Part shown: one piece after another, positions 29,185 through 57,629 of the stretch
How positions within the stretch are numbered: the stretch's first letter is position 1
Layout of the letters: each line of letters opens with the position of its first letter
Origin: an uncultured delta proteobacterium
GTDB taxonomy: Bacteria; Myxococcota_A; Polyangia; Palsa-1104
Assembly (NCBI GenBank): GCA_963785725.1
Contig: CAWAWS010000003.1
Span: 448,001-512,000 of the forward strand
Direction of reading: 5' to 3'
DNA: 64,000 nucleotides
Notes under the pieces: generated by a model
The model's database searches: none
What the model saw: only the letters and a program-made list of their open reading frames with translations
Told to the model about the DNA's origin: nothing
Translations under genes and position numbers: made by a program

Positions 29185-30052
29185 ATGCCTCCGCGCGAGA
29201 CGAGCTGCAGGACGGCGATTTTGGTGCTCGGTTGCCGGCAGCCGATTCTATCAGCGCTGCATCCAGACCATCCGCGCCACCTGGGGCGCGACCGCGTCGA
29301 ATCAGACCGACATTTATTATGTGTATGGCGCCAAGAGCTCGGCCGGCGAAGCGCTGATCGACCTCTCGCAGCTCCTGGCGCTCCACGCGGCCGAGCCGCC
29401 ACGCCACGCGCTCACCGACGGCGACGTCTGGGTCTCGGGTGACGTCATCTTGTGCGGCGCGGCCGACGTGCTCCACGACCAACCTGACTGCATCCTGCGC
29501 AAGCGGCTGCTCGCGTTCGATTACTTGGCCAACGAGCGCGGCTACGACTTCGTCTACAACGTGTGCGCGTCGAGCTACGTCGATGTCGCCGCGCTCGAGC
29601 GATACGTCGCCGGCGTGCCGCGCTCCGGCGTCTACCACGGCGCGGCGGTCGTGCACGGCGCCAGCGGCTTTCCGTTCGTGTCCGGCGCCTCGTTCTTGCT
29701 CTCGCGCGACGTCGCCGCCGACCTGGCCAACAGCGCCGAGCGCATCCTCGCCACCTATCCCGAGACGATGCCCGACGATGTCGTGCTCGGACACTTCATC
29801 GCCGGCAAGTACGGCGGCGCTCCGGTCGCGGACATCGCGCGCCGCATCGCGACAGCCCAAAGAGCGACCGCCAACCAGACGTTCGTGGTGCCTCACGGCG
29901 GCGGCAGCATGGACTTCGTAACGAAGCCGGAGTTCCGACAGATTCCCGAGGAGCCCAACTTTCATTTTCATTTCCATTCGGGTCGCATGTGGGAGATGGA
30001 GAATTTCCACCGTCGCTTCTTCGCGGCCGATCCGAGCGACGGAACCGCATGA
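29185..30052 (+). pseudogene. GT-A-fold glycosyltransferase-like protein with an apparent frameshift near 29247
   Basis: TAILVLGCRQPI in one frame continues as YQRCIQTIRATWG...SSYVD...FVSGASFLLSRD...PDDV in another; may be a sequencing error. Confidence 0.6.
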
Positions 30053-31033
30053 AACGCGCGCTGGTGCTCGGCGGCGGCGGCTTCATCGGCGACCACCTGG
30101 TGCGCCGGCTTGCGCGCGAGCAGCGCTGGGTGCGCGCCGTCGACTTGCAGCGCCCGCGCCACGGCGCGACCTGCGCACGACGACTTCGTCGTCGGCGACC
30201 TGCGCGATCCGACCGTGTGCCGCGCCGCGCTCGGCGGCGGCTTCGACGAGGTCTATCAGCTCGCCGCCGACATGGGCGGTGCCGGCTTCATCTCGAGCGG
30301 CGACAACGACGCGGACATCATGCACAACTCCGCGCTCGTCAACCTCAACGTGCTCGACGCGTGCACGCGCGCTGCGGTCGGGCGCCTCTTCTACTCGTCG
30401 ACCGCCTGCGTCTATCCCGAGCGCAACCAGCTCGATCCCGACCATCCGAACTGCAGCGAAGACAGCGTCTATCCGGCCGCGCCCGATAGCGAGTACGGCT
30501 GGGAGAAGCTCTTCAGCGAGCGGCTCTACCTCGCTTACGCGCGCAACCACGGCCTGACCGTCCGCATCGCGCGCTTCCACAACATCTTCGGGCCCGACGG
30601 ATCGTGGAACGACGGCCGCGAAAAGGCGCCGGCCGCGCTCTGCCGCAAGGTCGCGCTCGCTGCCGACGGCGAGGCCATCGAGATCTGGGGCGATGGCCGG
30701 CAAACACGCTCGTTCCTCTATGTCGACGAGTGCCTCGAAGGCGTCTTGCGCCTGATGCGCTCCGACTGCTCGGAGCCGCTCAACATCGGCTCCGAGCAGA
30801 TGCTGACGATCGAGGAGCTGGCCCGCCTCATCATGGACATCGCCGGCAAGCAGCTGACGATCCGCTATATCCCCGGGCCGCTGGGCGTACGCGGCCGCAC
30901 GTCCGACAACCGCCTCATTCGCGCGCGACTCGGCTGGGCGCCGAGCGGCAACCTGCGCGACGGCTTACGCGCGACCTACGAATGGATCGCGGCGCAGATC
31001 GACGCGGCCAAGCAGGCGCCGCTCACGCGCTGA
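30049..31033 (+). pseudogene. GDP-mannose 3',5'-epimerase-like NAD-dependent epimerase with an apparent frameshift near 30172
   Basis: MKRALVLGGGGFIG is in a different frame from AADMGGAGFI, YGWEK and GREKAPAALCRK; ATGA overlap with the upstream gene. Confidence 0.8.
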
Positions 31034-31940
31034 GATCGAGACCGGCGAATTTGCCCCATTCCGCCACGGTGCGCGCCGTGCCGAGGCCGTAGCGACCGAG
31101 GCTGGCGACGTCGCCCTTGCCGAACACGATCGTCTGCAAGCGCTCGATCATGCGATCGGTGCGCTCCCTCTGCCAGCGGCCGGTCTTGGTCTCCCAGACC
31201 TTGTGCCGATAGCCGCCCGGATAGTTCGAGTAGTCGAGGTGCCACACTTGGATCTCGTCGGGCAAGAACATGTCCCAGCCGTGGGTGAACGTGCGAATCG
31301 AGAGCGGCCCTTCGTGACCCGCGTTGATCATCGCCGGATCCTCGGGCACCTCGTCGATCCAAGCGCCGTACGTAAAGACGAAGTTGCAACAGGTGAAGGG
31401 CGTCATTTGGTGCGGCTCGGATTTGCGCGCGCGCGACATCTGGATATCGAGCCAACCTTCGGGCCGCACGATCTCGCAGCTGATGAGCGGCACGCCATCT
31501 TCCGGCATCCCCGCCCACGGGAATACGACGTTGCGCGCCTCGTCGAAGGTGAACGGCGGTGAGCTGGTGGTGAGCAGCGGCTTCTTGCTCGGCTTACGCT
31601 CGAGCTGCGCGATCAGGTTTTCGTCCCAGCCCGGCGCGAACGCCGTGTGCGAGTCGATGAGCAGATGATAGCGCTCGCCGTTGTAGAGCTTCTGCACCTC
31701 GGCACGCGCCCATCCGTAGCCGAGGCTCGCTTGGAAGGGATATTTGCGAATGCGAAACTGCGGGTGATGGCGGTAGCGATCGAGCTGCTCGTGCTCATCC
31801 GCTTGCCAGCACAGGCCGAACGTCAAGCGATCGGGATGGGTGGCGCCGGCGAGCGCCGACTCGATGGTGAACGGCAGGTACAAGTCGCGATAGGCGGCAA
31901 TCGAGACGAAGATCTGCCGCTCTTTCGTCGCGTCCATCAC
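31023..31940 (-). CDS. GT60 Skp1-hydroxyproline-type alpha-GlcNAc transferase
   Basis: IFVSIAAYRD, GLCWQ, WAR, LIDSH...WDE, EVPEDP, IRTFTHGWD, WH. Confidence 0.85.
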   Translation of the reverse strand: MMDATKERQIFVSIAAYRDLYLPFTIESALAGATHPDRLTFGLCWQADEHEQLDRYRHHPQFRIRKYPFQASLGYGWARAEVQKLYNGERYHLLIDSHTAFAPGWDENLIAQLERKPSKKPLLTTSSPPFTFDEARNVVFPWAGMPEDGVPLISCEIVRPEGWLDIQMSRARKSEPHQMTPFTCCNFVFTYGAWIDEVPEDPAMINAGHEGPLSIRTFTHGWDMFLPDEIQVWHLDYSNYPGGYRHKVWETKTGRWQRERTDRMIERLQTIVFGKGDVASLGRYGLGTARTVAEWGKFAGLDLSA

Positions 31941-32920
31941 AGCGACCTCGCGAATCGGAGCGCGCCGATGCGCTCCAGGCCTCGAATGACCCGCTCGACG
32001 TCGGTTTGCAGCGTCCCCGTTGGCATCTCGTAACGTGCTTCGAGGGTGTGGCGAATCTCGGCAATGGTGCGCGAGCCGTCACAGATGTGCCAGATCGCCG
32101 CGCCCGAAGCGTTGAGCGAGATCGCGTCCGCGCGCCCGGGAATCTCCAGGAACAGCGAGCCCAAGAGCTGGCCCTCCCGCACGTCCGCTCGTTTGCATGG
32201 TCGGAGAGACGCCAGCTCATCGCCTTCGTCATCGGCTGGCGCGGCACCGTCGGCGGCATCGCGGCTCGTCGCGAGGTCCGCCACCGCGTGAGGGACACGC
32301 GCCTCGGCCGCGGCGATCACATAGGCGACCTCGTCCGCGTCGCCGCGCGCGCCGTCGCAGCGCGCCGTTTCCGCGCGAATGAGGCTCATCAGCTCGAGCC
32401 AGCGCGCGACGATCTTGCGCAGATCGGTCGAGTGGATGAGGACCGGCAGCCGAACCGCCGCCAGCTCGAGCTGGCGATCGACACAGAAACGGTCGAGGAA
32501 CGAAAATGCCGCGCCCAAACCGAACGGGCCCGCGCCCGCCGGACGGTCGAGCCAAGCGCCGGCCTTGGCCTGACCGGGCCGTATCTCATCCGCCATGGCG
32601 GCGCGGAAGTCGAAGGTCGGCTCGACGAGCAGGATGGTGCCCTGCACGTCCTCGGTGAAGAGCCATTCGAGCAGCCCTGCCGCTCTTTGATACGGCGGAT
32701 AGACGTCGTCCGTGTAGGGATGCGGTGACCAGGACATCGTCGTGACGACGCGCGCGTGCGGAGACGACGGCAGCGGCCGCGACGGGTCTTGCGCGACGAG
32801 CCGAACGAGCTCGCCCGGCTGCCGCACCCGATGCCAGGAGCGCGCGAGGCGCCCAACCTGTCCGTCGACGTCGCCGGCGGCGTCGTCATGGGACGACGTG
32901 CAGAAAACGGTGTAAATCAC
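31937..32920 (-). CDS. HPAT/SGT1-like glycosyltransferase domain fused to a C-terminal PqqD/RRE domain (copy A)
   Basis: YTVFC...QPGELVRLV...SPHPYTDDVYPPYQRAAGLLEWL; C-terminal LNASGAAIWHICDGSRTIAEI...DV...L...G. Confidence 0.75.
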   Translation of the reverse strand: MIYTVFCTSSHDDAAGDVDGQVGRLARSWHRVRQPGELVRLVAQDPSRPLPSSPHARVVTTMSWSPHPYTDDVYPPYQRAAGLLEWLFTEDVQGTILLVEPTFDFRAAMADEIRPGQAKAGAWLDRPAGAGPFGLGAAFSFLDRFCVDRQLELAAVRLPVLIHSTDLRKIVARWLELMSLIRAETARCDGARGDADEVAYVIAAAEARVPHAVADLATSRDAADGAAPADDEGDELASLRPCKRADVREGQLLGSLFLEIPGRADAISLNASGAAIWHICDGSRTIAEIRHTLEARYEMPTGTLQTDVERVIRGLERIGALRFARSL

Positions 32921-33945
32921 GCCTTCGCCTCTCCCTCGACGCGGCGCCGTCGTGCCGTCGCGCCGCCCGAAAAGTGGCCCCAGCCGAAGGTCGCGCGCGG
33001 GTCGACCTCGGTGCCGCGATGGAACCACATGGTGACGGCGAAGCGGCTGTCGGCGAACGCGCCCGATGGACAGCGCACCGGCAGCGCTTCGTGCAGCTCG
33101 TCGCTCGGGAACACGACCAGGCGATTGGCCAGCGGCGCGATGGCCGTGAAGGTCTCGGCCGCAGTCCGCGCGCCCGCGGCCTCGACGCGGTCATAGAGAC
33201 GCAGCTCGCCGCCGGCGAATCCGCGCGGCTGGCGATGCAAATAGTAAATACAGGTGAGCAGGCGCGGGATATCCGCAGCCTCGTCGGTGTGCGTCTTGAA
33301 ATAGTAGCCGTCCTTGGCCGCCGTCAGCTGCGACTCGAAGGCGGCGAGCGGGAAGATGGGCGTGCCCAAAATCTTGCCGAGCAGCGGAAGCCAAATCAGC
33401 AGCCGATTCTCGAGCAGCCGACTGTGCACCGACTCTTGGAAGTTCAAGATCGCCTGATTTTGTCGTACGCCGGGCTCGTAGGCGCTCACCGTTCCCGCTT
33501 GGAAGTGCGCTTCGGAGAAGAGCGCATAAGCGAGCAGCTCGTCATGCTCCGGCACGCTCAGGAAATCGTCGACGACGAAGAAGCGCGGACGGCACAGGCG
33601 CAGGGTCGGGCCGCTCTCGACTCCATCGTCGCGCCACCGCTCGTCTCGCGCGTCCATTGCCTGGCTCGGTGGCCGGAGAAGCTCGCCCTTCCTTGCGCCG
33701 CCAGGCCTGGGCGGCTCGAGGACGACGGGCGGATGGCTCTCGATGGAGACGAGGTTGGCCGTCTGAAAAGACCAGGCGACGCGGCCACCCGCGAGCGGAA
33801 GCTGGACGAGCTGGTTCTCGGCGTTGCGATTGGCGAGCGCGCCGAAGAGGACGGCCAGCTCCGGCGCGCCTTCTTGCAGGCTCACTTGGCGCGTGTCGCC
33901 GCCGGCCAAGCGAATCGTGAGCGTGATTTCGCGGGGCGCCGCCAT
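32917..33945 (-). CDS. Fe(II)/2OG oxygenase, prolyl-hydroxylase-like, with extra N-terminal domain (copy A)
   Basis: KTHTD, TCIYY, FAGGELRLYD, LHEALPV, SRFAVT. Confidence 0.85.
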   Translation of the reverse strand: MAAPREITLTIRLAGGDTRQVSLQEGAPELAVLFGALANRNAENQLVQLPLAGGRVAWSFQTANLVSIESHPPVVLEPPRPGGARKGELLRPPSQAMDARDERWRDDGVESGPTLRLCRPRFFVVDDFLSVPEHDELLAYALFSEAHFQAGTVSAYEPGVRQNQAILNFQESVHSRLLENRLLIWLPLLGKILGTPIFPLAAFESQLTAAKDGYYFKTHTDEAADIPRLLTCIYYLHRQPRGFAGGELRLYDRVEAAGARTAAETFTAIAPLANRLVVFPSDELHEALPVRCPSGAFADSRFAVTMWFHRGTEVDPRATFGWGHFSGGATARRRRVEGEAKA

Positions 33946-35942
33946 CACGCCGCGGCCTCCCAACCCGCCTCGCTGAAGCGCGCGACGATTCGCGCCGCTT
34001 CGTCCGGCTGGCTGAAGCGCAGCTGCGCCGCGGGCCGCTGTTCGACGAGCCGGCAGAGGTGGTTGACGGCGCGATCGCGGTCGATGCGAAAGTCGATCGA
34101 GGCGCCGATCAGCGCGGCGACCGCCTCCGCCGGCGACATGGGCGCGATGCGACTGTCGCGCGTATACAGCGGCGTTCTCTTGGCGATCACCAGTCGCTCG
34201 AGCGGAGCGGCAAAGCGGCCGGGCCCGGCTGCGCCTTCGGGCTGCGAGCGCGCGCACAGCGGCACGGCCACCAGGTCGGCCGCGCGGATGGCGATGACGC
34301 TGCGATCGATCAGCCGAAAGCCTTGCGCCTCGATGGCGCGCACCAACGCGTGGGTGGGATCGGCGATCTCACCCGCGATCACGAGGCCGCGCCCGCCTTT
34401 GACGAACGCCGCCGCCGAAAGCCACGTGTAGTTGTGGCGCGCGCGGGCGTAGATGCGGGCGATGTACCGCTTGAGCACGAGCGGCAGCTCCTTCGCGCCG
34501 CAGGCTATCTTCTGATCGCTGCCACGCTGCGCGATGCTGTAGGTCGTGTCGTGGCCGACGTCGAGGTTGGCGATCACGTTGCGCGCCTGCGTGGTCGCGT
34601 CCGCGCCCAGCTGCACGGAGAGCTGCTTGAGCAAGGCGGCGTCTTTGCACCACACGGCCACCTGCAGATCCTCGAAGCCGACATACACGACCGCTTCGTC
34701 TTTGGGCGCGAGCGCGGGCGCGCTCGGGCGCGCACCCAAAGACGCCGGCTTTGCCTCCGCGACCTTGACGAGCGCGCCCGTCTCGAGGACCTCGGGCAAG
34801 AGGAAGCTCTCGGGCCACTCGCGCATCCAGGCCGGGTTGAGCTGCTGGCTGACGCGATTCCACGAATAGGGCCCGGCGAAATCCTCGACCATCTCGCCGC
34901 GCTCGAGCAGGATGCACTCGCTGACGGCGTGGCGGCCGCGCTCGAGCTCCGCCTCCGCGTCCGGCAGCTCGTTCCACAAGTAGCGAAAGGCCTCGGGCTT
35001 GCCGCGATTGCCGCGATAGCGCTGGATCAGCCCGGTGAACGTGCTCGTCATCGTGCCCATGAACTCTTTCGCTTCCGCCGCCACGAGCTGCGACAGATAG
35101 GCGAGGCTCAAGCTGTCGCTGCGCGGCAGCTTGAGCAGCTCGCGGCCGTAGTGATCGAGGATGTGCCAATCGATGAAGTAGTGATGCGGATAGGCCTGCT
35201 TGATCGCCGTGAAGAAGGGATCGTCGCGCTCGTCGGTGAGGATGACCAACGGCTCCCTGCGGCTGAACAGCGGCTCCATCGCCTCGAGGGCTTCGGCCGG
35301 CTTGCGGTCGAGCGTCGTCACGCCGTAGGTGACCTTGAAGTCGCCGCGGCGGAAATGCACCGCGTTGAAGGCGCCGAGGTCGCGCGCCACGCGCTGGGCG
35401 AGCTCGGCGAACGGGCGCTTCGCCTGCATGTTCCGCAAGAGCCGGTACACCGATCGCCGCGTCTCGTGATCGAAATAGAATTGATAGCTGTAATAGCCGA
35501 GATTGGAGCGCTTATTCGCCTGCTCGGACAGCGCCAGCACGGGGATTTGCTCGTGCTCGCCCGTCACCGTCACCCAGTGGCGCCGACTGCGTGCGAAGGC
35601 GCGCGCATCGGACGAGGACACGTCGAGCGTCTTCGGAAAGTAGAGCGCGCAGTCCCACAGCGAGTGCTCGGTGAGCTCGCGGCGCGCCAGCCCAGCGAGG
35701 TCGACGGCGTCCGGCTCGACCCACGCCACCGGCATCTCGATGAGGTCGGTGACCCGGCTCGGAACGGCGTTGTCGACGCGACCGTCATAGCTGACGAGGT
35801 TGGCGGGTGGCGGAATATTGCCGTCGAGCACCAAGAGGCGATTGGTCAGATGCGCCAGGATCACGCCGATTTCGATCGACATGATGCCGTTGGACAGCCC
35901 CGAATTTCCCGACTGATAATTGGTGTACAGGAGATAGCGCAT
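33945..35942 (-). CDS. O-fucosyltransferase-like protein with a C-terminal degenerate HPr-kinase-like domain
   Basis: SGLSNG, AVHFRRGDF, ILTDE, SQLVAAEAKEFMGTMTSTFT; C-terminal AAAFVKGGRGLVIAG. Confidence 0.75.
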   Translation of the reverse strand: MRYLLYTNYQSGNSGLSNGIMSIEIGVILAHLTNRLLVLDGNIPPPANLVSYDGRVDNAVPSRVTDLIEMPVAWVEPDAVDLAGLARRELTEHSLWDCALYFPKTLDVSSSDARAFARSRRHWVTVTGEHEQIPVLALSEQANKRSNLGYYSYQFYFDHETRRSVYRLLRNMQAKRPFAELAQRVARDLGAFNAVHFRRGDFKVTYGVTTLDRKPAEALEAMEPLFSRREPLVILTDERDDPFFTAIKQAYPHHYFIDWHILDHYGRELLKLPRSDSLSLAYLSQLVAAEAKEFMGTMTSTFTGLIQRYRGNRGKPEAFRYLWNELPDAEAELERGRHAVSECILLERGEMVEDFAGPYSWNRVSQQLNPAWMREWPESFLLPEVLETGALVKVAEAKPASLGARPSAPALAPKDEAVVYVGFEDLQVAVWCKDAALLKQLSVQLGADATTQARNVIANLDVGHDTTYSIAQRGSDQKIACGAKELPLVLKRYIARIYARARHNYTWLSAAAFVKGGRGLVIAGEIADPTHALVRAIEAQGFRLIDRSVIAIRAADLVAVPLCARSQPEGAAGPGRFAAPLERLVIAKRTPLYTRDSRIAPMSPAEAVAALIGASIDFRIDRDRAVNHLCRLVEQRPAAQLRFSQPDEAARIVARFSEAGWEAAA

Positions 35943-36590
35943 CTATTCCCTCGTCGCCGTGCCTGCAGCAGTCGCGGGATGGTAGTGAACGAAGATTCCC
36001 GCGTAGAAATCGCCGTCGAGCGGATAGGGGCGACCATGCGCCAGACGCACGCCTTCATAGAGGACGTATTCGCCCGGCTCCATGTCGACTTGGTGCACTC
36101 GACCGTCGAGGCCCTCGATGTGCAGCGGCCAGCGCGACTCGAGCGCGTGATCGATGCAGATCGTCGAGCTGACGAAGTGCGGCTGGCGATCGACATGGTT
36201 GTACAGGAAGGTTCCGCGTTGATAGCAGCGAATGCCGTAACAGGCCGAGAGCTCGAGCAGCCTACCCGCCCACGCTTCGTGCAGCGGCTTGAGCTCGTCG
36301 GCGAGCTGCGCGTTGAACGCGTCCTCTTGGAATAGGAGCGCCGGAATCACGTCTTGGCGAGCGCTGCGAATTTCGTCGGAGGCGCGCTCGGGACGAAACT
36401 GCGCCAGGTTGTCGCGCAACTGCGTCACCAGTCGTGCGTGGATGGCCGGCGCCAGTCGCCCCTTTTGGAAGCCGAGCCCGAGACTGGGCGCCGCGGCCTG
36501 CATCTCTTCGCACTTCTTGCGTAGATACGGCGGCGCCGTCAGCTCCGTCAGCAGCGGCTGCCCCGGCTCGGCTTCGCGCGCGCGACTCAT
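35943..36590 (-). CDS. Fe(II)/2OG oxygenase, prolyl-4-hydroxylase-like
   Basis: YGIRCY, HVDR, WPLHIE, PGEYVLYEG, HGRP, FVHY. Confidence 0.8.
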   Translation of the reverse strand: MSRAREAEPGQPLLTELTAPPYLRKKCEEMQAAAPSLGLGFQKGRLAPAIHARLVTQLRDNLAQFRPERASDEIRSARQDVIPALLFQEDAFNAQLADELKPLHEAWAGRLLELSACYGIRCYQRGTFLYNHVDRQPHFVSSTICIDHALESRWPLHIEGLDGRVHQVDMEPGEYVLYEGVRLAHGRPYPLDGDFYAGIFVHYHPATAAGTATRE

Positions 36591-37915: not shown

Positions 37916-37991
37916 TGACGTCTCTCCCGCGCAAGCTTCGGGTTTCGGGCCGCGACGATGCTACCGCGATTTCACGAGCCACGAGCGCAAA

Positions 37992-39005: not shown

Positions 39006-39084
39006 GCGCGCTCGAGCTTACACCACCGAGCGGCATGATAGGCTGCAGCGTCTACCGCTCGCCAAGCGACGAGGACGACCTTCG

Positions 39085-41169: not shown

Positions 41170-41182
41170 GTCGCTGCTGGCT

Positions 41183-42154: not shown

Positions 42155-43272
42155 CAGAGCCGCTCGAACCTGAGCGCGCCGATCTGCTCGAGGCGCCGCA
42201 AGACGGCCTCGGTATCGGGCTGCAGGCTGCCTTGCGGGAGCTCGAAGCGCGATTCGAGCGTTCGGTGGATGTCGGCGATCGTGTGCGTGCCGTCGCAGGC
42301 TTCCCAGATCGCGGCGCCGGAAGAGTCGAGCGCCAACGTGTCCGCGCGGCCGGGAATCTCGAGGAAGATCGAGCCGTAGATCTTGCCCGTGCGCACGCCG
42401 TCGCCGCGCAGCGGCCGCATGAACGTGAGCTCGTGTCGATGCGCGCGCCGTTCGCGCAGCTCGGCCAACAGCGTCAAGAGCTCGCGGCCCGTGCCCGCCT
42501 TTGCCGACAGCGGATCGACCGGATGATCCAAGCTGCCATCGCCGCTCGCATCCCACACGATCGCGCCGCTCGCCGACTCGACGGCGCGCTGGCAGTCGAT
42601 GATCGGCGCCGCGCTCTCGATGGCATGCGTGTCCGTCGCGAGCTCGGCCGCTGCGTGCGGAATGCGCGCCTCGGCGGCGGCGATCAGATAAGCCACGTCG
42701 TCGGCCGCGCGCAGCGGACCGTCTTCGGTGAGCGCGGTCTCGGCGCGAATCAGGCTCATCAGCTCCAGCCAGCGGGCCGCGATCTTGCGCAGATCGCTCG
42801 AGTGGATGATGAGCGGCAGCTTCACCGCGTCCAGCTCGAGCGCGCGATCGACGCAAAACTGGTCGAGGAACCCAAAGTCTCGGCCGAGGTCGAACGGACC
42901 GTCGCCGCGCGGGCGCTCCGGCCACGCCATGGCTTTGGCTTGGCCCGCTCGCGCTTCCTCGGTCACCGCCGCGCGAAAGACGCAGCGCGGCTCGACGAGG
43001 AGGATGGTCCCATCGACTTGCTCGCCGAACAGCCATTCGAGAATCGCGGCCGCTTTGTGGTACGGCGGATAGACGTCGCCCGTGTACGGATGCGGCGACC
43101 ACGCCGTCGTCGCCACGACGCGCGCGTGCCGATGCGTCGGCGCCGGCGGCGCTGGAGGGCGCGCGACCAGGCGCACCAGCTCGCCCGGTTGCCGCACGCG
43201 CGCCCACGAGAGCTCGAGCAGCTCGCACTGCCACTCGGGCTCACCGAAGCTGCAAACGACCGTGTGGATCAC
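42154..43272 (-). CDS. HPAT/SGT1-like glycosyltransferase domain fused to a C-terminal PqqD/RRE domain (copy B)
   Basis: HTVVCS...EWQ...QPGELVRLV...HPYTGDVYPPYHKAAAILEWL; C-terminal AIWEACDGTHTIADI. Confidence 0.78.
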   Translation of the reverse strand: MIHTVVCSFGEPEWQCELLELSWARVRQPGELVRLVARPPAPPAPTHRHARVVATTAWSPHPYTGDVYPPYHKAAAILEWLFGEQVDGTILLVEPRCVFRAAVTEEARAGQAKAMAWPERPRGDGPFDLGRDFGFLDQFCVDRALELDAVKLPLIIHSSDLRKIAARWLELMSLIRAETALTEDGPLRAADDVAYLIAAAEARIPHAAAELATDTHAIESAAPIIDCQRAVESASGAIVWDASGDGSLDHPVDPLSAKAGTGRELLTLLAELRERRAHRHELTFMRPLRGDGVRTGKIYGSIFLEIPGRADTLALDSSGAAIWEACDGTHTIADIHRTLESRFELPQGSLQPDTEAVLRRLEQIGALRFERL

Positions 43273-44255
43273 GAGCCCACGCTGCGCAGCTGCGGCGCGA
43301 CCACGCCGCAAAAGAAGTGGCCCCAGCCGAAGCGTGCCTGCGGATCGACCTTGTCGCTGGCGTGCAGCCAGACGGTGATGGCAAAGCGGCTGTCGGCGAA
43401 TTCGCCCGATGGACAGCGCACGGGCAGCGCTTCGTGGAGCTCATGGCTGGCGAACACGACCAGCCGATTGGCCACCGCCTGCACCGGCACGAACGACTCG
43501 GCGGCCCTGACCTCGGCGCCGCCTTCGACGGAGACGGCGTCGTAGAGCCGCAGCTCGCCGCCGCTGAAACCGCGCGGCTCGCGGTGCAAATAGTAGATAC
43601 AGGTCAGCGCCCGCGGCGTCGTCGGCGATTGGTCGGCGTGCGTCTTGAAATAGTGGCCGTCGCGCGCCGCGGTCAGCTGCGACTCGAGCTGCGCCAGCGG
43701 AAACACCGGCAGCCCCAAGCGCTTGGCGATGAGCGGGAACCAAATGAGCAGCCGATTTTCGAGCAGCCGACTGTGCACCGACGCGCCGAAATCGAGGATG
43801 ACCTGATTCTGCCGCACCTCGGGCGTGTAGGACTCGGTCACGGTGCCAGCCTCGAACTGCGCCTCGGAGGCGAGCGCATAGGCGAGCAGCTCGTCGTGCT
43901 CTTGTGGGCTCAGGAAATCGTCGATGATCACGCAGCGAGGACGACGCACGCTCAGCGACGAAGCGGAACGCGTGGCCTCGGGCTGAGCCGCCGCGTTTGG
44001 CTGCGCTGGGCTCAGCCGTTCGGGAGCGAGCACCACCGGCGGCTCACTCGTCACGGAGACGATCTTCGCCGTTTGAAACGACCAGGCGCGGCGGCCGCCG
44101 TCGAGCGGCAGCTGCAGGAACCGGTTCTCAGCCCACGGCGAGGCGAGCGCGGCGAACAGCGCCAGCAGCTCGGGCGCATCTTCGCGCAGCCGCACTTCAC
44201 GTGCTTCGCCGCTGACCAGGTTGATCGTGAGCGTGATGTCGCGCAGTGTCCCCAT
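43269..44255 (-). CDS. Fe(II)/2OG oxygenase, prolyl-hydroxylase-like (copy B)
   Basis: KTHAD, FSGGELRLYD, LHEALPV, SRFAIT; paralog of 32917-33945. Confidence 0.85.
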   Translation of the reverse strand: MGTLRDITLTINLVSGEAREVRLREDAPELLALFAALASPWAENRFLQLPLDGGRRAWSFQTAKIVSVTSEPPVVLAPERLSPAQPNAAAQPEATRSASSLSVRRPRCVIIDDFLSPQEHDELLAYALASEAQFEAGTVTESYTPEVRQNQVILDFGASVHSRLLENRLLIWFPLIAKRLGLPVFPLAQLESQLTAARDGHYFKTHADQSPTTPRALTCIYYLHREPRGFSGGELRLYDAVSVEGGAEVRAAESFVPVQAVANRLVVFASHELHEALPVRCPSGEFADSRFAITVWLHASDKVDPQARFGWGHFFCGVVAPQLRSVGS

Positions 44256-44351
44256 CAGTCGGTGGCCTTCGTGTCCGCATGGGCGAGGCGCGAACGGAGC
44301 CACGTCCTCTTAACCGTGCGGCGGCAATGAGTCGTGCGCATCCGAACGACG

Positions 44352-44954
44352 TTACGAAGTGGTCGCGCGCAGTCGAACGCGCGCAGTCGCGCGCGCCGCG
44401 CCGAGCGCGATGAAGCCGACCGAGCTCGACCCGCAGTCGGGCGCGCTCGCCATTCCCAACACCGGTGACACCGTTGGCGCCAGGGTCGGCGCGGGGACGC
44501 AGTGGCCGGCCATGGTCGGATGCGCGGTCGGCGCTCGCGTCGGCGGCGCGGTCGGCGCTCGCGTCGGTGGCGCAGTCGGCGCTGGCGTCGGCGGCGCCGC
44601 TGTCGGCGGCGCGGTGGGCGCCCGCGTCGGCGCCAGGGTCGGCAAATTGATCACGGAATGGTCGTCGCCGGCGCCACCGTAGTAAGCCAGCGCCGTGCCG
44701 GGCTTCAAGATCGTGCCCAGCCCCGCCGCCAGCTGCGCCATCGGCAGCGATAGGACCACCGGCGCCACCCACATCTTCTTCAGCGCGTCGCGGCGCGATG
44801 GATCGGCCGCCGGCTCGTCCGGCTTGGCGTCGGCCGCCTGCGCGTGCGCCGGCTCGGACGACTCCGCCGCGTCGTGCTGCTCCAGCTTCCTCTTGAGCTC
44901 CTCGAGCTCGGCGAGCAGCTGCTCTTTGGTCTTCTTGTCGCTACCGTCGCTCAA
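44352..44954 (-). CDS. Putative substrate/precursor: twin-arginine-like leader followed by Pro/Thr (PT) repeats
   Basis: TTG start with GAGGT Shine-Dalgarno; SRRDALKKMWVAPVVLSLP; TALA|YY; 13 PT dipeptides. Confidence 0.8.
   Translation of the reverse strand: MSDGSDKKTKEQLLAELEELKRKLEQHDAAESSEPAHAQAADAKPDEPAADPSRRDALKKMWVAPVVLSLPMAQLAAGLGTILKPGTALAYYGGAGDDHSVINLPTLAPTRAPTAPPTAAPPTPAPTAPPTRAPTAPPTRAPTAHPTMAGHCVPAPTLAPTVSPVLGMASAPDCGSSSVGFIALGAARATARVRLRATTS
44524..44595 (-). repeat. 24-nt tandem repeat, 3 copies, encoding APPT(R/P)APT
   Basis: gcggtcggcgctcgcgtcggcggc repeated with few mismatches. Confidence 0.8.
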
Positions 44955-44972
44955 GAGGTTGTACCTCGGCCA

Positions 44973-45248: not shown

Positions 45249-45356
45249 CCCCCCGCTGCCAGCGCCCGACCAGAGCATCCTGCTAGTGAAGGTACGCCAT
45301 GTCCTTGTGGTCAACAAGCGCGAACTGGCCTAGCATCGCGGGCACTGACTCGAATC

Positions 45357-46478
45357 ATGCTGCGTTCGCTCGATGATGTCCTCTCGCCGCTCACCGTCGG
45401 AGAATTCGCGGCGGCGGTCGACGGCAGGAAGCGCTTCCACGTGCAGACGACCGATCCGCGGCGCGCGGAGTCGCTGCTGCCGTGGCCCGAGATCGAGGCG
45501 ATGATCTCGATGCGTCGCTTCGAGAACATGAAGGTGATGCACAACGGCATGGTGGTGCCGCCGCAGCTGTACAACGCGGACGTGAGCGCGCTGCACGACG
45601 TGCTCTTGCAAGGCGCCAGCATCGTCGCCACGCGCGTCGACGCGGATGTGCCGCAGATCCAGTGGCTGGCGACCGCGATCGAACGGCAGCTCGGGCGCGA
45701 GGTCGGCGTCAATGCGTATCTGAGCTTCTCGGAGGGCGGCGCGTTCAAGCCACACTGGGATCGGCACGATGTGCTGGTCTTGCAAGTCCACGGCGCGAAA
45801 ACGTGGAGCATCTGGAACGCGACGCTCGACAATCCCGTCGAGATGTCGCGCTTCGCCAAGCACGACATCACGGACGCGCCCTGTCAGTCGCTCGAGCTGG
45901 CGGCCGGCGACGTCCTTTACATCCCGCGCGGAGAGCCGCACGCCGCGTCGGTGTCGAGCGGCGCCTCGGTGCATCTGACGTTCGGGATCGAGCGCATCAC
46001 CGGCGTCGACGCGTTACAGCGGCTGCAACAGGCGGCCGGCGAAGATGCCTTCTTGCGCGCGGATGTGCCCACCAAAGAGCGGCCCGCGCAGCTGCACGCG
46101 TTCGAAGCCGAGTGGAAGGCGCGCTTGCACCGCCTGGTCGACGCGACTGACCTAGCGCAGGTTTTGCACGACAGCGACCTGCAGCGACCGCCGGTTCGGC
46201 AGGCCTCCTTGTCGACGTTCGCGGAGCCGAGCGATCTCGTACGGCTCACGTTGCGGCGGCGCGTTCCGCTCGATGGCGGCACGGTGACCATTGGCGGCGT
46301 CGCGCACCCGCTCTCGGCCGCGGCCATCGACCTCTTGCGCCGCTTGTTCGAGCGCGACTGGCAGACGCGCGCTGCGCTGACGCAGGCGCTGGCGCCGCGT
46401 CACGAGCCCTCAGCGGTCGAGCGCGCGCTCCGCGAGCTCGCGCGGCTCGGCTTCATCGCCACGCATCGTCCGATATAG
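45357..46478 (+). CDS. JmjC/cupin-4 (RoxA/YcfD-like) 2OG oxygenase
   Basis: NAYLS, PHWDRHDVLVLQVHGAKTW, GDVLYIPRGEPH, C-terminal winged helix. Confidence 0.88.
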   Translation: MLRSLDDVLSPLTVGEFAAAVDGRKRFHVQTTDPRRAESLLPWPEIEAMISMRRFENMKVMHNGMVVPPQLYNADVSALHDVLLQGASIVATRVDADVPQIQWLATAIERQLGREVGVNAYLSFSEGGAFKPHWDRHDVLVLQVHGAKTWSIWNATLDNPVEMSRFAKHDITDAPCQSLELAAGDVLYIPRGEPHAASVSSGASVHLTFGIERITGVDALQRLQQAAGEDAFLRADVPTKERPAQLHAFEAEWKARLHRLVDATDLAQVLHDSDLQRPPVRQASLSTFAEPSDLVRLTLRRRVPLDGGTVTIGGVAHPLSAAAIDLLRRLFERDWQTRAALTQALAPRHEPSAVERALRELARLGFIATHRPI

Positions 46479-47378
46479 CGGCGCGATGCGTTCGGCGACG
46501 AGCTGTCGCTCCGCTTCGGACAGCGGCGCGTGCGCGCGGGCGCGGAACGGCTGCTCGCTCTGCGCCTTGGAGTCGAAGCGCGCTCGCTCGCGCATGCGTT
46601 CGATGGCCGACGGCGCGAAGGTCAGCTGCGCATGGGGCGCGACCTCATCCCAGACGGCATCGGGCAGCCGCGCGTAATCGACCGTGCGCAAGGAAAGCTT
46701 GGCGGCGTGCGCGGCCGAGAACAGCGCTTCGATGGCGTGCAGCCGAAAGCGCGCCGCCGACATCGCCCGCGCCTCGTCGACCGTGAGGCCGAACAGCGCC
46801 AGCGCCGGATCGCCCGTCTCGCGCCAGCTCAGCCATGCCGCCGGCTGTGCGGCGTGCGAGGCCAGCACCCGCAACGGATCGCGCTGCAGCCAGATCATCG
46901 GCGTCGCCGGAAACGCGCGCTGAATCAGGTTCACCGCCAGCACGTTCCAGCTCGTGAGCTTGAGGACGAGGTGGCGTGCGCCGGCGCGGTTGCGGCCGAG
47001 CGCGCGCACGACCAAGCGAAACAGCTCCACCTTATCGTGCTGATCGAGGCGCGCCGCGACGATGTTGTTGACGACGTTGACTTCCGAGAGCACGACATAA
47101 TCGGGCAGCGCCGCCAACATCTGCGCCAGCAAGGTCGACCCGCAGCGCGACACTTGAAAGATGAACAGCGACGGCTCGAGCGTCGGCCGCTCGTCGAGCG
47201 CGCGCAGCACGTCGACTCCGGTCAGCGCCTTGAGCTTGTCATTGGGCAGTCGCGCCAGCGTGTCGCGAAAGAACGGCTCGACGAAGCGCACGTCGCGCAG
47301 ATCGGCCCAGGTGAACAGCGGCTCGGGCAGGAATCGCACCGCGATGGGCGTGCAGTGCGCAGCGTCGTGCACGGTCAC
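46410..47378 (-). CDS. Sulfotransferase-like protein
   Basis: EPFF, FIFQVSRCGSTLL, LSE, KLTSW, RDP..VLASH. Confidence 0.75.
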   Translation of the reverse strand: MTVHDAAHCTPIAVRFLPEPLFTWADLRDVRFVEPFFRDTLARLPNDKLKALTGVDVLRALDERPTLEPSLFIFQVSRCGSTLLAQMLAALPDYVVLSEVNVVNNIVAARLDQHDKVELFRLVVRALGRNRAGARHLVLKLTSWNVLAVNLIQRAFPATPMIWLQRDPLRVLASHAAQPAAWLSWRETGDPALALFGLTVDEARAMSAARFRLHAIEALFSAAHAAKLSLRTVDYARLPDAVWDEVAPHAQLTFAPSAIERMRERARFDSKAQSEQPFRARAHAPLSEAERQLVAERIAPLYRTMRGDEAEPRELAERALDR

Positions 47379-47396
47379 GAGGTCAGCCGCCCGGCC

Positions 47397-47807
47397 TCAA
47401 ATCATCATGCCCGGCCGGATCAGGCGCGCGAGCTGCAGCTCGGCGAAGCGCAGTCGCTGACGCGGCTCGAGCATGCGACAGATGTCGAGCGTGCGCTCGA
47501 AGCCGATCTCGTTCAACGTCTGACGCTGCTCGCGAATCCTCTCGCTGGTGGCGCGTATCTCCGCCTCGTTCAGCGCGACCAAGTTCAGCTTCTGTTGCGC
47601 CACCAGCCGCTCCAGCTCCTCGCGCGCATGGCCGTAGCGCTCGAGGTCGCGGTCGAAGATGGCTTGCAGCTGCGCGCTCTGCGCCGGGGCGAGATCGAGC
47701 TGGTCGAGGATGGAGCGCCCCTTCTTCTTCGGTTCGCGCCGCGGCTGTGGTGCCGTTGGGACGATCTCACCCATCAGCCGAGCCAAGAACTTACGCCTCT
47801 CCATCAC
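47397..47807 (-). CDS. Spy/CpxP/heavy-metal-sensor-like helical protein
   Basis: QLDLAPAQ and LEPRQR (LTxxQ-like) motifs; N-terminal RRKFL. Confidence 0.55.
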   Translation of the reverse strand: MMERRKFLARLMGEIVPTAPQPRREPKKKGRSILDQLDLAPAQSAQLQAIFDRDLERYGHAREELERLVAQQKLNLVALNEAEIRATSERIREQRQTLNEIGFERTLDICRMLEPRQRLRFAELQLARLIRPGMMI

Positions 47808-48369
47808 CCGATTTTCTCACGGCGGGCGCCCAATCGCAAATGAGGTGCACGCGCGGCGCGACGCCGTCGTTGCTCGCCGAGTGCTGGCGCCGGTTGTTGA
47901 TCTCGACGACGTCGCCCGGCTTCAAGTGGCGCAGCTCGCCGCCGACGCGGAACAGCGCCTGCGCGTTGGTGACGACCGCGACGTGCAGCCGATGGCTGTT
48001 GGCCAGCGAGAAGCCGGCATCGACGTGCGGCGGGATCGAGCCGCCCGGCCGCAAGCGCACCAGCAGCGAGCGAACGATCCAGCCCGCATCGCCGAAGCAG
48101 CCGGCGATCACGCCGTGGATCGGCTCGATGACGTGCGCAAAACGCGCGTAGCTCTCGCGCCGCGTCGGCTCGGCATGGCGAAAGTCGGCGTCGAAGAGCA
48201 GCGGAATGGTCTGCGTGTCACGATGCGTCGGGAAGGTCTCCTGGCGAAAGCGATCCGCCAGCCAATCCTCATCGGACAATCTCGACAGCTCGGCACAGAG
48301 CGCCGCGATGTCGACGGTGCCGCGCTGGAAGTAGTTCCCTGCGAAGTCCACGACGGCTGCTACAATCAT
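47791..48369 (-). CDS. Aspartyl/asparaginyl beta-hydroxylase family protein
   Basis: RLRPGGSIPPHVD, HRLHV, EINNRRQHSA.N...RVHLI.D; exact start uncertain. Confidence 0.85.
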   Translation of the reverse strand: MIVAAVVDFAGNYFQRGTVDIAALCAELSRLSDEDWLADRFRQETFPTHRDTQTIPLLFDADFRHAEPTRRESYARFAHVIEPIHGVIAGCFGDAGWIVRSLLVRLRPGGSIPPHVDAGFSLANSHRLHVAVVTNAQALFRVGGELRHLKPGDVVEINNRRQHSASNDGVAPRVHLICDWAPAVRKSGDGEA

Positions 48370-48380
48370 GTCTCGTTCGC

Positions 48381-49100
48381 GTGTTCATTACAAAGTCATT
48401 CGTCTTCATCCATCTGCACAAGTCGGGCGGGACGTTCGTAAACCGCTTTCTGCAGCGCTTCTTTTCCGACGGACAGCGGCTGAATTGGCATCTGCCGCGC
48501 GCTTTTCTACCGCGCGACTTCCGCGCCCTGCCCGTCTTGGGCGTCGTGCGCAATCCGTGGGACTACTACGTCTCGTGGTTCACGTTTCAGTCGTCGATGC
48601 GCCCGCAGCAGCAGAACGCGCTGTACCGCGCGGTCTCGGACGACGGCACGCTCGCTTTTTCACCCGCGATCGCCAACCTCGTGAAGCTGTGCGACGACCG
48701 CGAGCGCTGGCAGGCCCTCCGCGCGCAGCTGCCGGACGCGTTCGTCGACCACGGCATCAACCTCACCAAGCGCTGCATCGATCCGCTGCTCGGCTCGGGA
48801 CGCGGCTTTTATTCGTTCCTGTTTCAGCGCATGTTCGCGCCGCCGGAAGGTGGCGATGGAGGCGGCGTGACGTTCGCGCGCATGGAGTCGCTGCGCGGCG
48901 ATCTGCTGCAGTTCCTCGGCGACGTCGGCGTCGAAGTTACCGACGAGATGCGCGACTTCCTGTTGCGCTCGGAGAGAGTGAACGTCACCGAGCACGCGCC
49001 GTTTGCCACCTATTACGACCCGGCCTTGCGCGACGAGGTCGGCGCGCGCGACCGCGAGGTCATCGAACGCTTCGGCTACCGGTTCAAAAGCGATAGTTGA
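48381..49100 (+). CDS. Sulfotransferase family 2-like protein
   Basis: FIHLHKSGGT, VRNPWDYYVS, RMESL, YY...FGY.F. Confidence 0.8.
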   Translation: MFITKSFVFIHLHKSGGTFVNRFLQRFFSDGQRLNWHLPRAFLPRDFRALPVLGVVRNPWDYYVSWFTFQSSMRPQQQNALYRAVSDDGTLAFSPAIANLVKLCDDRERWQALRAQLPDAFVDHGINLTKRCIDPLLGSGRGFYSFLFQRMFAPPEGGDGGGVTFARMESLRGDLLQFLGDVGVEVTDEMRDFLLRSERVNVTEHAPFATYYDPALRDEVGARDREVIERFGYRFKSDS

Positions 49101-49746
49101 AGCGCTCCACGTCTTCGGCGTAGCGACGGGCGACGAGCGCGCGCGCGCGCGGCCCGTAATATTGCGTGTAGTGACCGTGCTTGGTGCGGTTGAGGAACGG
49201 CAGCTCGATGGCGGGAAAGCCGGCGCGTTGGCAGATGTGCTGCCAGTCTTCGCTGACGCGCTCGATGCGTCCCAAGAAGTCGGGCAGCCAGCGGCCGGCA
49301 TCGTCGCGAAAGAAGCTGCACTGCGAGCGCAAGTGAACATCCAACAGCGCGTCTTCGCTGTGCGCGACCACTTCGACGAAGTCGTCGAACGTCATCTCGA
49401 GGCGAAAACGGCCGTCCTGCTGGAACCAGGGCGGCAGCGCGACCAGCCCTTTTTCACGATTGTCCGTGAAGGTGAACGCGTACGCCGACAAGAGCCGCGC
49501 CCACGGATTGCGCACGAAGCCGAAGCGAAAATGATCGGTGAGCGCATGGACGGCCATCTTGTCGAAGCCGGGAATCTCGGTCTTGAAGCGGTGCCGCGCC
49601 GGCCCGTCGCCGCGTTCGCTGATCGGGTGGCCGGCGAGCTTGGCCGCGACATAGGCGAGCGAGGTCGACGCCACCTTGGTCTGCGCGAGCAGCAGCGCGC
49701 GATACGGCGGAATGATCACGATGCCGTTGTAGGGCTGCATGCTCAT
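49084..49746 (-). CDS. Sulfotransferase family 2 protein
   Basis: TKVASTS, FVRNPWARLLSAY, HLRSQ, DFLGRIE, YAEDVERFNY. Confidence 0.85.
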   Translation of the reverse strand: MSMQPYNGIVIIPPYRALLLAQTKVASTSLAYVAAKLAGHPISERGDGPARHRFKTEIPGFDKMAVHALTDHFRFGFVRNPWARLLSAYAFTFTDNREKGLVALPPWFQQDGRFRLEMTFDDFVEVVAHSEDALLDVHLRSQCSFFRDDAGRWLPDFLGRIERVSEDWQHICQRAGFPAIELPFLNRTKHGHYTQYYGPRARALVARRYAEDVERFNYRF

Positions 49747-57628: not shown

Positions 57629-57629
57629 C

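Follow-up and report, generated by a model that had tools for sequence, protein, structure and literature searches.

Gene content of the locus

In the 64,000-nt stretch of DNA analyzed here (the window; G000:C3:448001-512000), which belongs to the 8.9-Mb, 88% complete genome of an uncultured member of the Polyangia, a block of 21 genes at window positions 29321-49824 combined a gene for a Pro-Thr (PT)-repeat protein with genes for glycosyltransferases (GTs), oxygenases and PqqD-type domains. We analyzed this block as a candidate system for modification of the PT-repeat protein; its genes, g01 to g20 and a free PqqD gene, are listed in Table 1. The block was delimited by third-position G+C content and Pfam. 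Long shadow open reading frames (ORFs) were frequent at the G+C content of about 67%, and genes were therefore called by codon-position G+C and cross-checked against Pfam and NCBIfam. The left flank was occupied by the gene of a 2220-aa Cys-rich repeat surface protein, 22403-29065(+), and the right flank by two-component genes from 49911 onward.

A first-pass annotation had described about 20 contiguous genes at 29185..49746. The cluster was indeed found there, with a start 136 nt ahead of the first gene and an end inside the last gene (49084-49824), and every listed item was recovered, some with corrections. The PT-repeat protein with a leader-like N-terminus was a 200-aa product with 13 PT dipeptides, and the one free and three fused PqqD domains, which are recognition elements (RREs) of peptides made by the ribosome and modified after translation (RiPPs), all gave PF05402 matches above the cut-off, the fused ones within ORFs 31937-33028(-), 36587-37915(-) and 42154-43311(-). 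The two GT60s and the UDP-xylose synthase stood as described. The same was true of the five Fe/2-oxoglutarate (2OG) oxygenases, namely two of the prolyl 4-hydroxylase (P4H) type, a JmjC_2 protein, an Asp_Arg_Hydrox cupin and the small g07 with an HxD...H triad, and of the three sulfotransferase-like genes, one of which (g19) reached just 5e-4. Among the Pfam and NCBIfam matches of the cluster ORFs there was, as the first-pass annotation had said, no lasso cyclase, protease, radical S-adenosylmethionine enzyme, YcaO or Wzx/Wzy protein. Three HPAT/SGT1-like GT domains had been proposed; those of g04 and g12 showed kinship with the HPAT family, and the third, in g08, had a GT-A fold nearest to GT6. 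The O-FucT-like protein g06 matched its family below the Pfam cut-off here and clearly in a homologue. Of the two further GTs, g10 was a Glyco_trans_1_2 protein and g01 gave a Fringe/GT31-like lead. The GDP-mannose epimerase-like gene g02 was correctly placed in its family, and its reading frame was broken. The enzymes had also been assumed to be cytoplasmic; none contained a 19-residue window with a hydropathy of at least 1.6 (Kyte-Doolittle scale, KD19), and since no membrane-like segment was present they should act in the cytoplasm.

Part of the block was duplicated. The P4H/HPAT-RRE pairs g13-g12 and g05-g04 were paralogues of 59-65% identity, and there were two GT60 genes. Soil metagenome runs from two studies covered only small shares (0.06-0.10) of the window; contigs from soil that were compared with it were 90-99% alike, and thus came from relatives and not from the same strain, and they were used for two remarks on indels only.

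The PT-repeat protein and its conservation

The g14 gene was the sole copy in the genome. In an alignment of the substrate family (A4), residues R54, R55, W62, P65 and L68 were invariant in 19 of 19 rows, and the hydropathy of g14 peaked at 1.59 (KD) at residue 65, within a moderately hydrophobic stretch. The family shared a layout of Met-Ser-Asp, an amphipathic helix, an acidic linker, an RR...W62/P65/L68 segment, an AxA-like site (e.g. AHA/Q, the slash marking the predicted cut) and xPT repeats; the C-terminus was commonly a hydrophobic helix followed by a charged tail, either basic or acidic, or a short PVE[LI]xxF ending. The invariant RR, the hydropathy of the h-region and the AxA-like sites may suit a signal for twin-arginine translocation (Tat); against this, the putative signal starts about 50 residues into the protein. 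TatC was encoded in the genome. A hidden Markov model (HMM) of the N-terminal leader region, built from 17 BLAST hits and g14, detected 35 ORFs in 34 loci. In 35 family members the region after the motif contained 19.9% Pro, 17.1% Thr and 16.8% Ala, and 370 of its 660 Pro residues (56%) directly preceded Thr. The substrates were about 100-340 aa long, with a highly variable number of repeats. NCBIfam contained no model for the substrate, and the -CTERM-like tails, both that of g14 and that of the neighboring Cys-rich protein, went unrecognized.

Among 8000 candidates scored from a collection of 5.8 billion proteins, 114 were related to the HPAT-like-PqqD protein at E<=1e-3. With each species represented by one genome, a scan yielded 64 related loci (L-numbers below) in Polyangia/Myxococcales, Ca. 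Nitrotoga, Ca. Binatia, Alpha- and Gammaproteobacteria, Acidobacteriota, Thermodesulfobacteriota, Actinomycetota (Acidimicrobiia) and Bacteroidota. BLAST against the locus ORFs revealed a canonical operon (e.g. L005) in the order PT-repeat protein, g08, g07, g06, g13, g12 and GT60, often with GDP-mannose 3,5-epimerase (GME) and UDP-xylose synthase genes nearby; an all-against-all clustering of locus ORFs was blurred by stop-to-stop ORFs and antisense shadows and was not used for counts. The first-pass annotation had held that homologous clusters without a Pro-rich ORF would refute its proposal. This objection was not borne out: the PT-repeat ORF was the conserved first gene of the operon in relatives, present in 30 of the 33 loci with a full g08 homologue, and in 29 of these it lay within 261 nt upstream on the same strand. 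Two of the three exceptions, L037 and L040, were contig ends (L037 keeps a PT tail at 1-129), and in the third, L036, the PT protein was encoded elsewhere in the locus with PqqD in cis. In the window the operon was split and partly duplicated; the substrate gene stood beside the second P4H/HPAT-RRE pair and the second GT60 gene (g09) occupied the usual position of the substrate. A g08 homologue at E<=1e-20 was absent from all 400 other genomes sampled from this phylum. The system is rare, and its patchy distribution across phyla suggests horizontal spread. Two cultured carriers were among the loci, Elongatibacter sediminis CH-27 (L020) and Tepidamorphus sp. 3E244 (L019).

The HPAT-like ORF continued into a PqqD domain in 41 of the 64 loci and ended without one in 20, with three cut or ambiguous cases. 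The 20 loci without an HPAT-fused PqqD also had no g08, and their g06 was short, without the C-terminal domain. PT-rich ORFs nevertheless adjoined the enzymes in 14 of these 20, in three forms. The gammaproteobacterial form had RRK..RR, a Gly-rich hydrophobic stretch and W.KPVV.SV.LPAHAQ; that of Arenicella and Polaribacter started with PT repeats and ended in a beta-rich domain of about 100 aa; and that of Acidimicrobiia carried PqqD in cis ahead of the RR segment. PT repeats directly after Met, without a signal or leader, were seen in L048:4244-4732(-), L051:13607-14125(-), L052, L055 and L058:8752-9240(-), and the PT proteins of Arenicella, Parasphingorhabdus and Polaribacter shared the conserved beta-rich end with a terminal Cys. 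The proteins of these three genera may represent a substrate form that is not exported or is exported differently.

In 13 of the 20 loci without an HPAT-fused PqqD, the HPAT-like domain, GT60 and the small oxygenase lay together in one ORF of roughly 1200 aa without internal stops. The 1185-aa protein of L047 (L047:10001-13558), a complete chromosome of 43% G+C, matched HPAT at 5.6e-13, GlcNAc/GT60 at 1.4e-48 and 2OG-FeII_Oxy_3 at 2.1e-19; the same locus encoded a PLOD-GT + GT6 + PqqD protein, O-FucT, GT77, two PF03567 sulfotransferases and tandem PT genes. The first of these (L047:4847-7612(+), 921 aa) joins a GT of the collagen lysyl-hydroxylase (PLOD) type to GT6 and PqqD in a domain order reversed relative to g08. 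Further fusions among the matches of A7, a bacterial HPAT-like domain profile, were HPAT+GT60+P4H, HPAT+O-FucT+GT60, O-FucT+HPAT and O-FucT+GT60+PLOD-GT. Such fusions provide the strongest in silico argument that the hydroxylase and the GTs would belong to one pathway acting on one substrate. Relatives of the cluster also added GT77 genes (13 loci) and GT47/RXYLT1-like genes (3 loci); GT77 and GT47 are the other families of extensin arabinosylation.

Enzymes of the cluster and neighboring genes

Four of the seven PqqD matches of the whole genome fell in these 20 kb. The free PqqD gene lay 19 nt upstream of g14, and in L008 and L015, the two nearest relatives, homologues likewise lay upstream of the precursor gene. 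An ORF at 29176-29442 that had been considered as the free PqqD gave no match in the scan; the true one is that in Table 1. In the structural model of g08, strands 24-28, 31-35 and 42-45 were followed by helices 47-54, 62-69 and 77-93, the topology of an RRE. PqqD was fused in cis to PT proteins, just ahead of the RR/hydrophobic segment, in Acidobacteriota (L036:15196-16011(-)) and in Acidimicrobiia (L059:1856-2665, L061:5954-6769 and L064:5898-6698). A predicted complex of the g12 RRE (A1 270-372) with the substrate N-terminus (A4 1-82) reached scores of 0.26 and 0.16, where 0.32 was the mark; the prediction had no controls and is evidence neither way. RRE-glycosyltransferase fusions have been mentioned, in general terms, as candidates for new RiPP clusters (PMC7470986; PMC12710340).

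The HPAT-like domains of g04 and g12 were 65% identical over residues 13-239. In the family alignment A1, 19 of 25 members matched PF23452 (HPAT) at E<=0.05, and P0007 (61% identical) scored 25.4 against a cut-off of 23.9. The A7 profile retrieved 1117 cluster representatives at E<=1e-3, of which 469 reached <=1e-10 and 92 reached <=1e-30. Of 20 of these matches scanned, 18 hit PF23452, several at 1e-30 or better and seven at 103-115 bits, and one match bore the source name 'peptidyl serine alpha-galactosyltransferase'. The profile thus reaches canonical HPAT proteins, and by this measure the HPAT-like proteins of the window are, at the family level, divergent kin of HPAT, as had been proposed. 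Membership of g03 and g09 in GT60 was evident from 146.9 and 151.5 bits against a PF11397 cut-off of 21.

The GT-A domain of g08 had invariant D234 and D236 (model with a predicted local distance difference test score, pLDDT, of 86), and its best PDB matches were GT6 enzymes (5bxc 6.9e-7, TMt about 0.5). An Atlas neighbor of g08 has HPAT in 16% of its members, which serves as a lead only. PDB sequence searches with g07, g08, A1 and GT60 found nothing beyond PqqD, and no solved GT60 chain was matched.

The fucosyltransferase-like g06 contained an HxRRGDFK motif that was invariant in 25 of 25 rows; HxRRxD is the conserved nucleotide-sugar motif of the O-FucT family. The g06 homologue of L047 matched O-FucT at 9.6e-29 and 101.4 bits. 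The C-terminal domain (last 270 residues; model pLDDT 88.6) matched PEPCK and HPr kinase in Foldseek and HprK_rel_A of NCBIfam at 5.8e-5. The P-loop pattern of the HPr kinase/lasso-peptide kinase family is GxxGxGK[ST]; the consensus of the g06 family (A6) had only GDxGxG without Lys-Ser/Thr, and the window sequence also lacked these residues. Because the P-loop lysine is missing, the modeled domain is likely a non-catalytic binding module, and because it is present only alongside RRE-type enzymes it may be an additional docking module.

Among the oxygenases, the closest solved chain to g13 was 6t8m, 'Prolyl 4-hydroxylase subunit alpha' (8.1e-9). P4H-type domains with an HxD...H triad were recognized in g13 and g05 by PF13640 and in g07 by its invariant triad, and 7 of 28 members of the g07 family matched PF13640. 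The g07 protein was the most widely conserved oxygenase of the system, present in 51 loci and fused to HPAT and GT60 in 13. We infer action on peptidyl proline from the Pro-rich substrate and from the fusion to HPAT.

Of the genes for nucleotide sugars, g11 co-occurred with g02 (28 ORF matches across loci). The Rossmann N-terminus of g02 was in one frame and the remainder in another, and the intact homologue of L009 matched plant GME (2c59) at 7.6e-98. A related soil contig aligned over 29553-30253 with a single gap, and since the sole indel listed in that region was at 29604, the frame break appears to be shared and not an assembly slip. In contigs of three soil runs an extra G relative to the window followed 29604, inside g01, a possible indel difference. 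GDP-L-galactose, the product of GME, is the 6-hydroxy analogue of GDP-fucose, and the product of the g02 family would fit the fucosyltransferase-like g06. The nearest Atlas feature clusters of g01, whose homologues occurred in nine related loci, carried Fringe (43%) or Galactosyl_T (14-15%), again a lead only. A PF03567 sulfotransferase/methyltransferase giant of L020 had a domain that matched g20 and was found in 15 loci; L047 had two PF03567 sulfotransferase genes. The Spy/CpxP-like g17 sat among the sulfotransferase-like genes and had an N-terminal RRKFL motif without a hydrophobic stretch.

Outside the cluster, the 2220-aa protein on the left had TNFR_c6-like repeats (8.4e-19), a signal-like N-terminus and a C-terminal tail of Cys, hydrophobic and Arg/Lys parts that resembles MYXO-CTERM. 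ORFs of 2295 and 1673 aa antisense to it were shadows, and a similar protein was encoded in the L015 and L016 loci. A KaiC (PF06745, 1.8e-84) and KaiB (4.9e-22) pair at 57338-59573(-) lay beside a PAS histidine kinase-receiver gene at 55302-57341; its sequence suggests a circadian-clock-like module in a non-cyanobacterial genome. The gene at 59859-61013(-), beside two OmpA-family genes, encoded a Big_5 and Ice_binding-like (PF11999, 1.9e-50) protein. In other carriers, a Peptidase_C25 (gingipain-family) protein (L020:17468-19732(-), Elongatibacter) and an fn3 protein with an IPTL-CTERM sorting signal (L009:13675-16551(+), Nitrotoga) adjoined the system.

Table 1. Genes and features of the cluster (positions in the window)
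Feature	Position	Strand	Evidence
g01, 243 aa, possible Fringe/GT31-like GT, accessory	29321..30052	+	no Pfam match; Atlas neighbors
g02, GDP-mannose 3,5-epimerase family, frameshifted near 30150-30180	30049..31033	+	homologue match
g03, GT60 copy a	31023..31940	-	PF11397 1.4e-42
g04, HPAT-like GT with C-terminal PqqD/RRE, copy b	31937..32920	-	PqqD 1.9e-12 (Pfam); A1 row 2
g05, P4H-type 2OG oxygenase with N-terminal extra domain, copy b	32917..33948	-	PF13640 1.4e-18; homologues in 41 loci
g06, fucosyltransferase-superfamily GT (N-terminal) with HprK/PEPCK-fold domain (~395-665)	33945..35942	-	PF10250 3.8e-4
g07, small 2OG-Fe(II) oxygenase	35943..36620	-	H142, D144, H195, R197 invariant in A3
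g08, N-terminal PqqD/RRE with GT-A domain with DxD	36587..37915	-	PqqD 2.4e-11 (Pfam)
g09, GT60 copy b	37992..39005	-	PF11397 5.5e-44
g10, 732-aa Glyco_trans_1_2 protein, accessory	38971..41169	+	PF13524 1.3e-14; homologues in 4 loci
g11, UDP-glucuronate decarboxylase (UDP-xylose synthase)	41183..42160	-	human UXS1 (4gll) 4e-103
g12, HPAT-like GT with C-terminal PqqD/RRE, copy a	42154..43272	-	PqqD 3.2e-10 (Pfam); family profiles
g13, P4H-type 2OG oxygenase with N-terminal extra domain, copy a	43269..44258	-	PF13640 8e-17
g14, PT-repeat substrate protein, 200 aa	44352..44954	-	translation; leader HMM
g14, N-terminal amphipathic helix, residues 8-26	44877..44933	-	L13, E16 invariant in A4
g14, RR...WxAPV[IV]LS motif, residues 53-71, Tat-like n/h-region, candidate recognition site	44742..44798	-	A4
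g14, PT-repeat region, residues 105-164	44463..44642	-	translation
g14, C-terminal Cys/Ser stretch, hydrophobic segment and Arg-rich tail, residues 173-200	44355..44438	-	translation, A4
Free PqqD/RRE protein	44973-45317	-	PF05402 2e-13, 53.8 bits, at G000:C3:493003-493188
g15, JmjC_2 oxygenase, lineage-specific accessory	45354..46478	+	PF08007 1.4e-22
g16, Sulfotransfer_3-like, membership uncertain	46410..47378	-	PF13469 4.3e-11; elsewhere L008 only
g17, LTXXQ-family, probably outside the system	47397..47807	-	PF07813 1.4e-5; no related locus
g18, Asp/Asn beta-hydroxylase-like cupin, membership uncertain	47791..48369	-	PF05118 1.7e-12; no related locus
g19, weak Sulfotransfer_1-like, membership uncertain	48381..49100	+	PF00685 5.3e-4, under cut-off; no related locus
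g20, Sulfotransfer_2 (carbohydrate-sulfotransferase family), recurrent accessory	49084..49824	-	PF03567 3.4e-17

Proposed pathway, alternatives and related systems

The association of the substrate with the enzymes and the eukaryote-like set of families are solid. On balance, we consider it probable that the cluster serves to hydroxylate Pro and attach O-glycans, with RRE docking and in the cytoplasm, on a mucin/extensin-like surface protein that is then exported. The observed gene content, synteny, family kinship, fusions and substrate anatomy suggested a chemistry, a docking contact, an export route and an order of steps. The g14 protein would be the one dedicated substrate and would be matured in the cytoplasm ahead of export. 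The free PqqD protein and the RREs of g12, g04 and g08 would dock on its N-terminal part, at the helix and/or the RR...WxAPV[IV]LS motif, and the HprK-fold domain of g06 and perhaps the N-terminal domain of the P4H-type enzymes may dock there too. The motif, with an aromatic residue followed by x-x-Pro-x-hydrophobic, recalls the lasso leader YxxPxL, which is bound by PqqD-type RREs. The oxygenases g07 and g13/g05 would hydroxylate Pro in the xPT repeats, after which the HPAT-like GTs and GT60s would attach the first sugars to hydroxyproline (Hyp) and/or Thr. The glycan would be lengthened by g06, g08 and the accessory GTs, with UDP-xylose (g11), a GDP-L-sugar of the L-galactose/fucose type (g02 family) and UDP-N-acetylglucosamine as donors, and optionally sulfated by the PF03567 sulfotransferase. 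The RR...WxAPV segment would then act as a Tat-like signal peptide and be cut by signal peptidase at the AxA site, expected near residue 90; with a signal peptide that doubles as the leader, the cluster would need neither a dedicated protease nor an exporter. The outcome would be a glycoprotein of the mucin/extensin-like kind, attached to the cell surface through its C-terminal anchor. All the enzyme families involved act on proteins in eukaryotes.

Several observations weigh against this reading in whole or in part. As to docking, the free PqqD gene was restricted to the two close relatives L008 and L015, and the N-terminal helix was missing in some RRE-bearing loci (L029, L032 and L038), so the helix could not be the sole docking site; the WxxPV motif was retained where HPAT has no RRE, and the motif may therefore serve export over docking. 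As to export, RR was replaced by KR in several alphaproteobacterial substrates, which weakens the Tat interpretation. As to the enzymes, g12 and g04 themselves gave no Pfam HPAT match even at E<=10 and were assigned via family profiles, and the acidic motif anticipated for the metal site of a GT-A fold varied across the HPAT-like family. The GT domain of g08 could not be called HPAT-like because hhalign of A2 against A1 aligned the PqqD parts alone, and g06 scored 20.6 bits for PF10250 against a cut-off of 31.5. The frame of g02 is broken, seemingly also in the related soil strain, and the GDP-L-sugar branch may be dead here. Finally, the JmjC gene g15 occurred only in L008 and L015, g16 only in L008, and g17, g18 and g19 in no other locus. 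Sulfation, which the first-pass annotation had included in the pathway, involved one recurrent PF03567-type enzyme and is not core to the system; it and several of the oxygenases are, by their sequence distribution, lineage-specific extras, most of the sulfotransferases and three of the five oxygenases being unconserved.

The PT repeats would also suit a mucin-type modification, in which sugars are attached to Thr (and Ser) and the oxygenases hydroxylate another residue or a sugar or serve as oxygen-dependent regulators. In its favor, 56% of the Pro residues precede Thr, Thr accounts for 17% of the mature region, the HPAT-like domain varies in its acidic motif, GT60 includes protist polypeptide Thr alpha-GlcNAc transferases, and enzymes of the O-FucT family act on Ser/Thr. 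We nevertheless regard this explanation as rather unlikely, because 13 loci encode a P4H-type oxygenase, HPAT and GT60 as a single chain, acceptors of the HPAT family are by definition Hyp (and Ser), the nearest solved chain to g13 is a prolyl 4-hydroxylase, and Pro exceeds every other residue in abundance and in regularity of spacing.

The Hyp-glycosylation system might be real in other bacteria and yet, in this genome, be in decay or have been rearranged, with its own substrate gene lost from the canonical operon, the epimerase broken and a module duplicated. The frameshift of g02, the indel at 29604 in related soil contigs and the non-canonical gene order described above point in this direction. 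Against it, the remaining 20 genes were open with a coding-type third-position G+C, the identity of 59-65% indicates that the paralogue pairs are old and maintained, and L008 and L015 keep the arrangement of JmjC, free PqqD and substrate. Decay therefore seems improbable to us.

The four RRE domains, the leader-like conserved N-terminus and the mention of RRE-GT fusions as candidate RiPP clusters would fit a classical RiPP, with all or part of the PT region excised and released as a small diffusible glycopeptide (signal or antibiotic). The substrates were too large for a short precursor, at about 100-340 aa with a highly variable repeat number; no protease or exporter was seen among the Pfam/NCBIfam matches of the window cluster; and many substrates ended in hydrophobic anchors with charged tails, which suit a retained surface protein. 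A released peptide is thus quite improbable. The RiPP label of the first-pass annotation holds for the logic of the system and not for its product, a protein with export and anchor signals and unlike a small peptide. Biosynthesis of a polysaccharide or glycolipid, with the PT protein and the PqqD domains as bystanders, is very unlikely: nucleotide-sugar enzymes and many GTs do cluster as in exopolysaccharide or lipopolysaccharide loci, but Wzx/Wzy, a polyprenyl-phosphate GT and an ABC exporter were absent from the Pfam/NCBIfam matches of the 21 genes, the PT ORF was syntenic across phyla, the GT families present are protein-directed, and PqqD was fused to GTs.

RRE-docked hydroxylation and glycosylation of the PT-repeat protein has partial counterparts in several known systems. 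The plant route to extensins and small peptides uses P4H, HPAT (GT95), RRA/XEG113 (GT77) and ExAD (GT47), with SGT1 (GT96) acting on Ser. The cluster shares the P4H-type and HPAT families, its relatives add GT77 and GT47/RXYLT1-like genes, and the substrate is likewise Pro-rich, repetitive and predicted to be exported. In contrast, the plant enzymes are Golgi type-II membrane proteins working in the secretory lumen, whereas those of the cluster are soluble, predicted to be cytoplasmic and equipped with RREs; the repeats are Ser-Pro3-5 in extensins and xPT here; GT60 and the O-FucT-like protein are extra in the cluster; and no UDP-arabinopyranose mutase was seen among the Pfam/NCBIfam matches in the window. 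The Skp1 route of Dictyostelium and Toxoplasma, with PhyA, Gnt1 (GT60), PgtA and AgtA (GT77), resembles the cluster in its cytoplasmic P4H followed by GT60 and soluble GTs (GT77 in relatives), its one dedicated substrate and its multi-domain GT fusions. Gnt1 and the GT60s of the cluster are likened by family. Skp1, however, is folded and carries its modification on one Pro only, without leader, RRE, export or HPAT, whereas the substrate of the cluster is a polymer of repeats that bears a signal sequence.

In Gram-positive bacteria, Ser-rich-repeat surface adhesins are glycosylated and exported by GtfA/GtfB and an accessory Sec system. These also have a dedicated cluster, a low-complexity repeat protein glycosylated in the cytoplasm before export, a long N-terminal signal and a C-terminal anchor; they differ in using GT4 and other enzymes and the SecA2/SecY2 exporter, in being Ser-rich and confined to Gram-positive hosts, and in having neither oxygenases nor RREs. 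RRE-dependent RiPPs (lasso peptides, pyrroloquinoline quinone) and glycocins share the free and fused PqqD domains, the conserved N-terminus and the leading position of the substrate gene. Here the substrate, up to about 340 aa long, has both an anchor and an export signal, there is no leader protease, cyclase or exporter, PqqD is in cis in some lineages, and the predicted class-defining chemistry would be new. Tat proofreading chaperones of the TorD/DmsD/NapD type offer a parallel in idea, as cytoplasmic binders that hold an RR signal until maturation is complete, but their fold is unrelated to PqqD and they serve cofactor insertion, whereas the role predicted for the cluster is glycosylation. 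The system is thus a hybrid of plant extensin, protist Skp1 and Ser-rich-repeat adhesin glycosylation with RRE-guided RiPP tailoring, and a member of none of these.

To our knowledge, hydroxyproline O-glycosylation is regarded as a eukaryotic trait of plant walls, peptide hormones and protist oxygen sensing. The first-pass annotation knew of no characterized bacterial pathway of this design, and our full-text searches, whose coverage left out most subscription journals, likewise found no description of a bacterial P4H/HPAT/GT60 system or of RRE-guided Hyp glycosylation. We tentatively raise the possibility, which remains less than probable, of a bacterial hydroxyproline-rich glycoprotein pathway (P4H, GT95/96, GT60, GT77, GT31 and GT47) that follows RiPP logic, in which the signal peptide is a leader held by RREs until glycosylation is finished, and which, as a rare and horizontally scattered system with HPAT-GT60-P4H fusion proteins, could be a prokaryotic reservoir of the eukaryotic Hyp-glycosylation enzymes. 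If the proposed pathway is true, bacterial protein glycosylation would gain a new class, and Hyp O-glycosylation chemistry its first prokaryotic model, in a conserved operon with a dedicated repeat substrate. The pathway would also represent a new use of RREs, which would dock GTs and hydroxylases on a full-length secreted protein, and its soluble, leader-guided Hyp/Thr glycosyltransferases would be tools for glyco-engineering. The origin of GT95, GT60 and GT77 would become directly testable.

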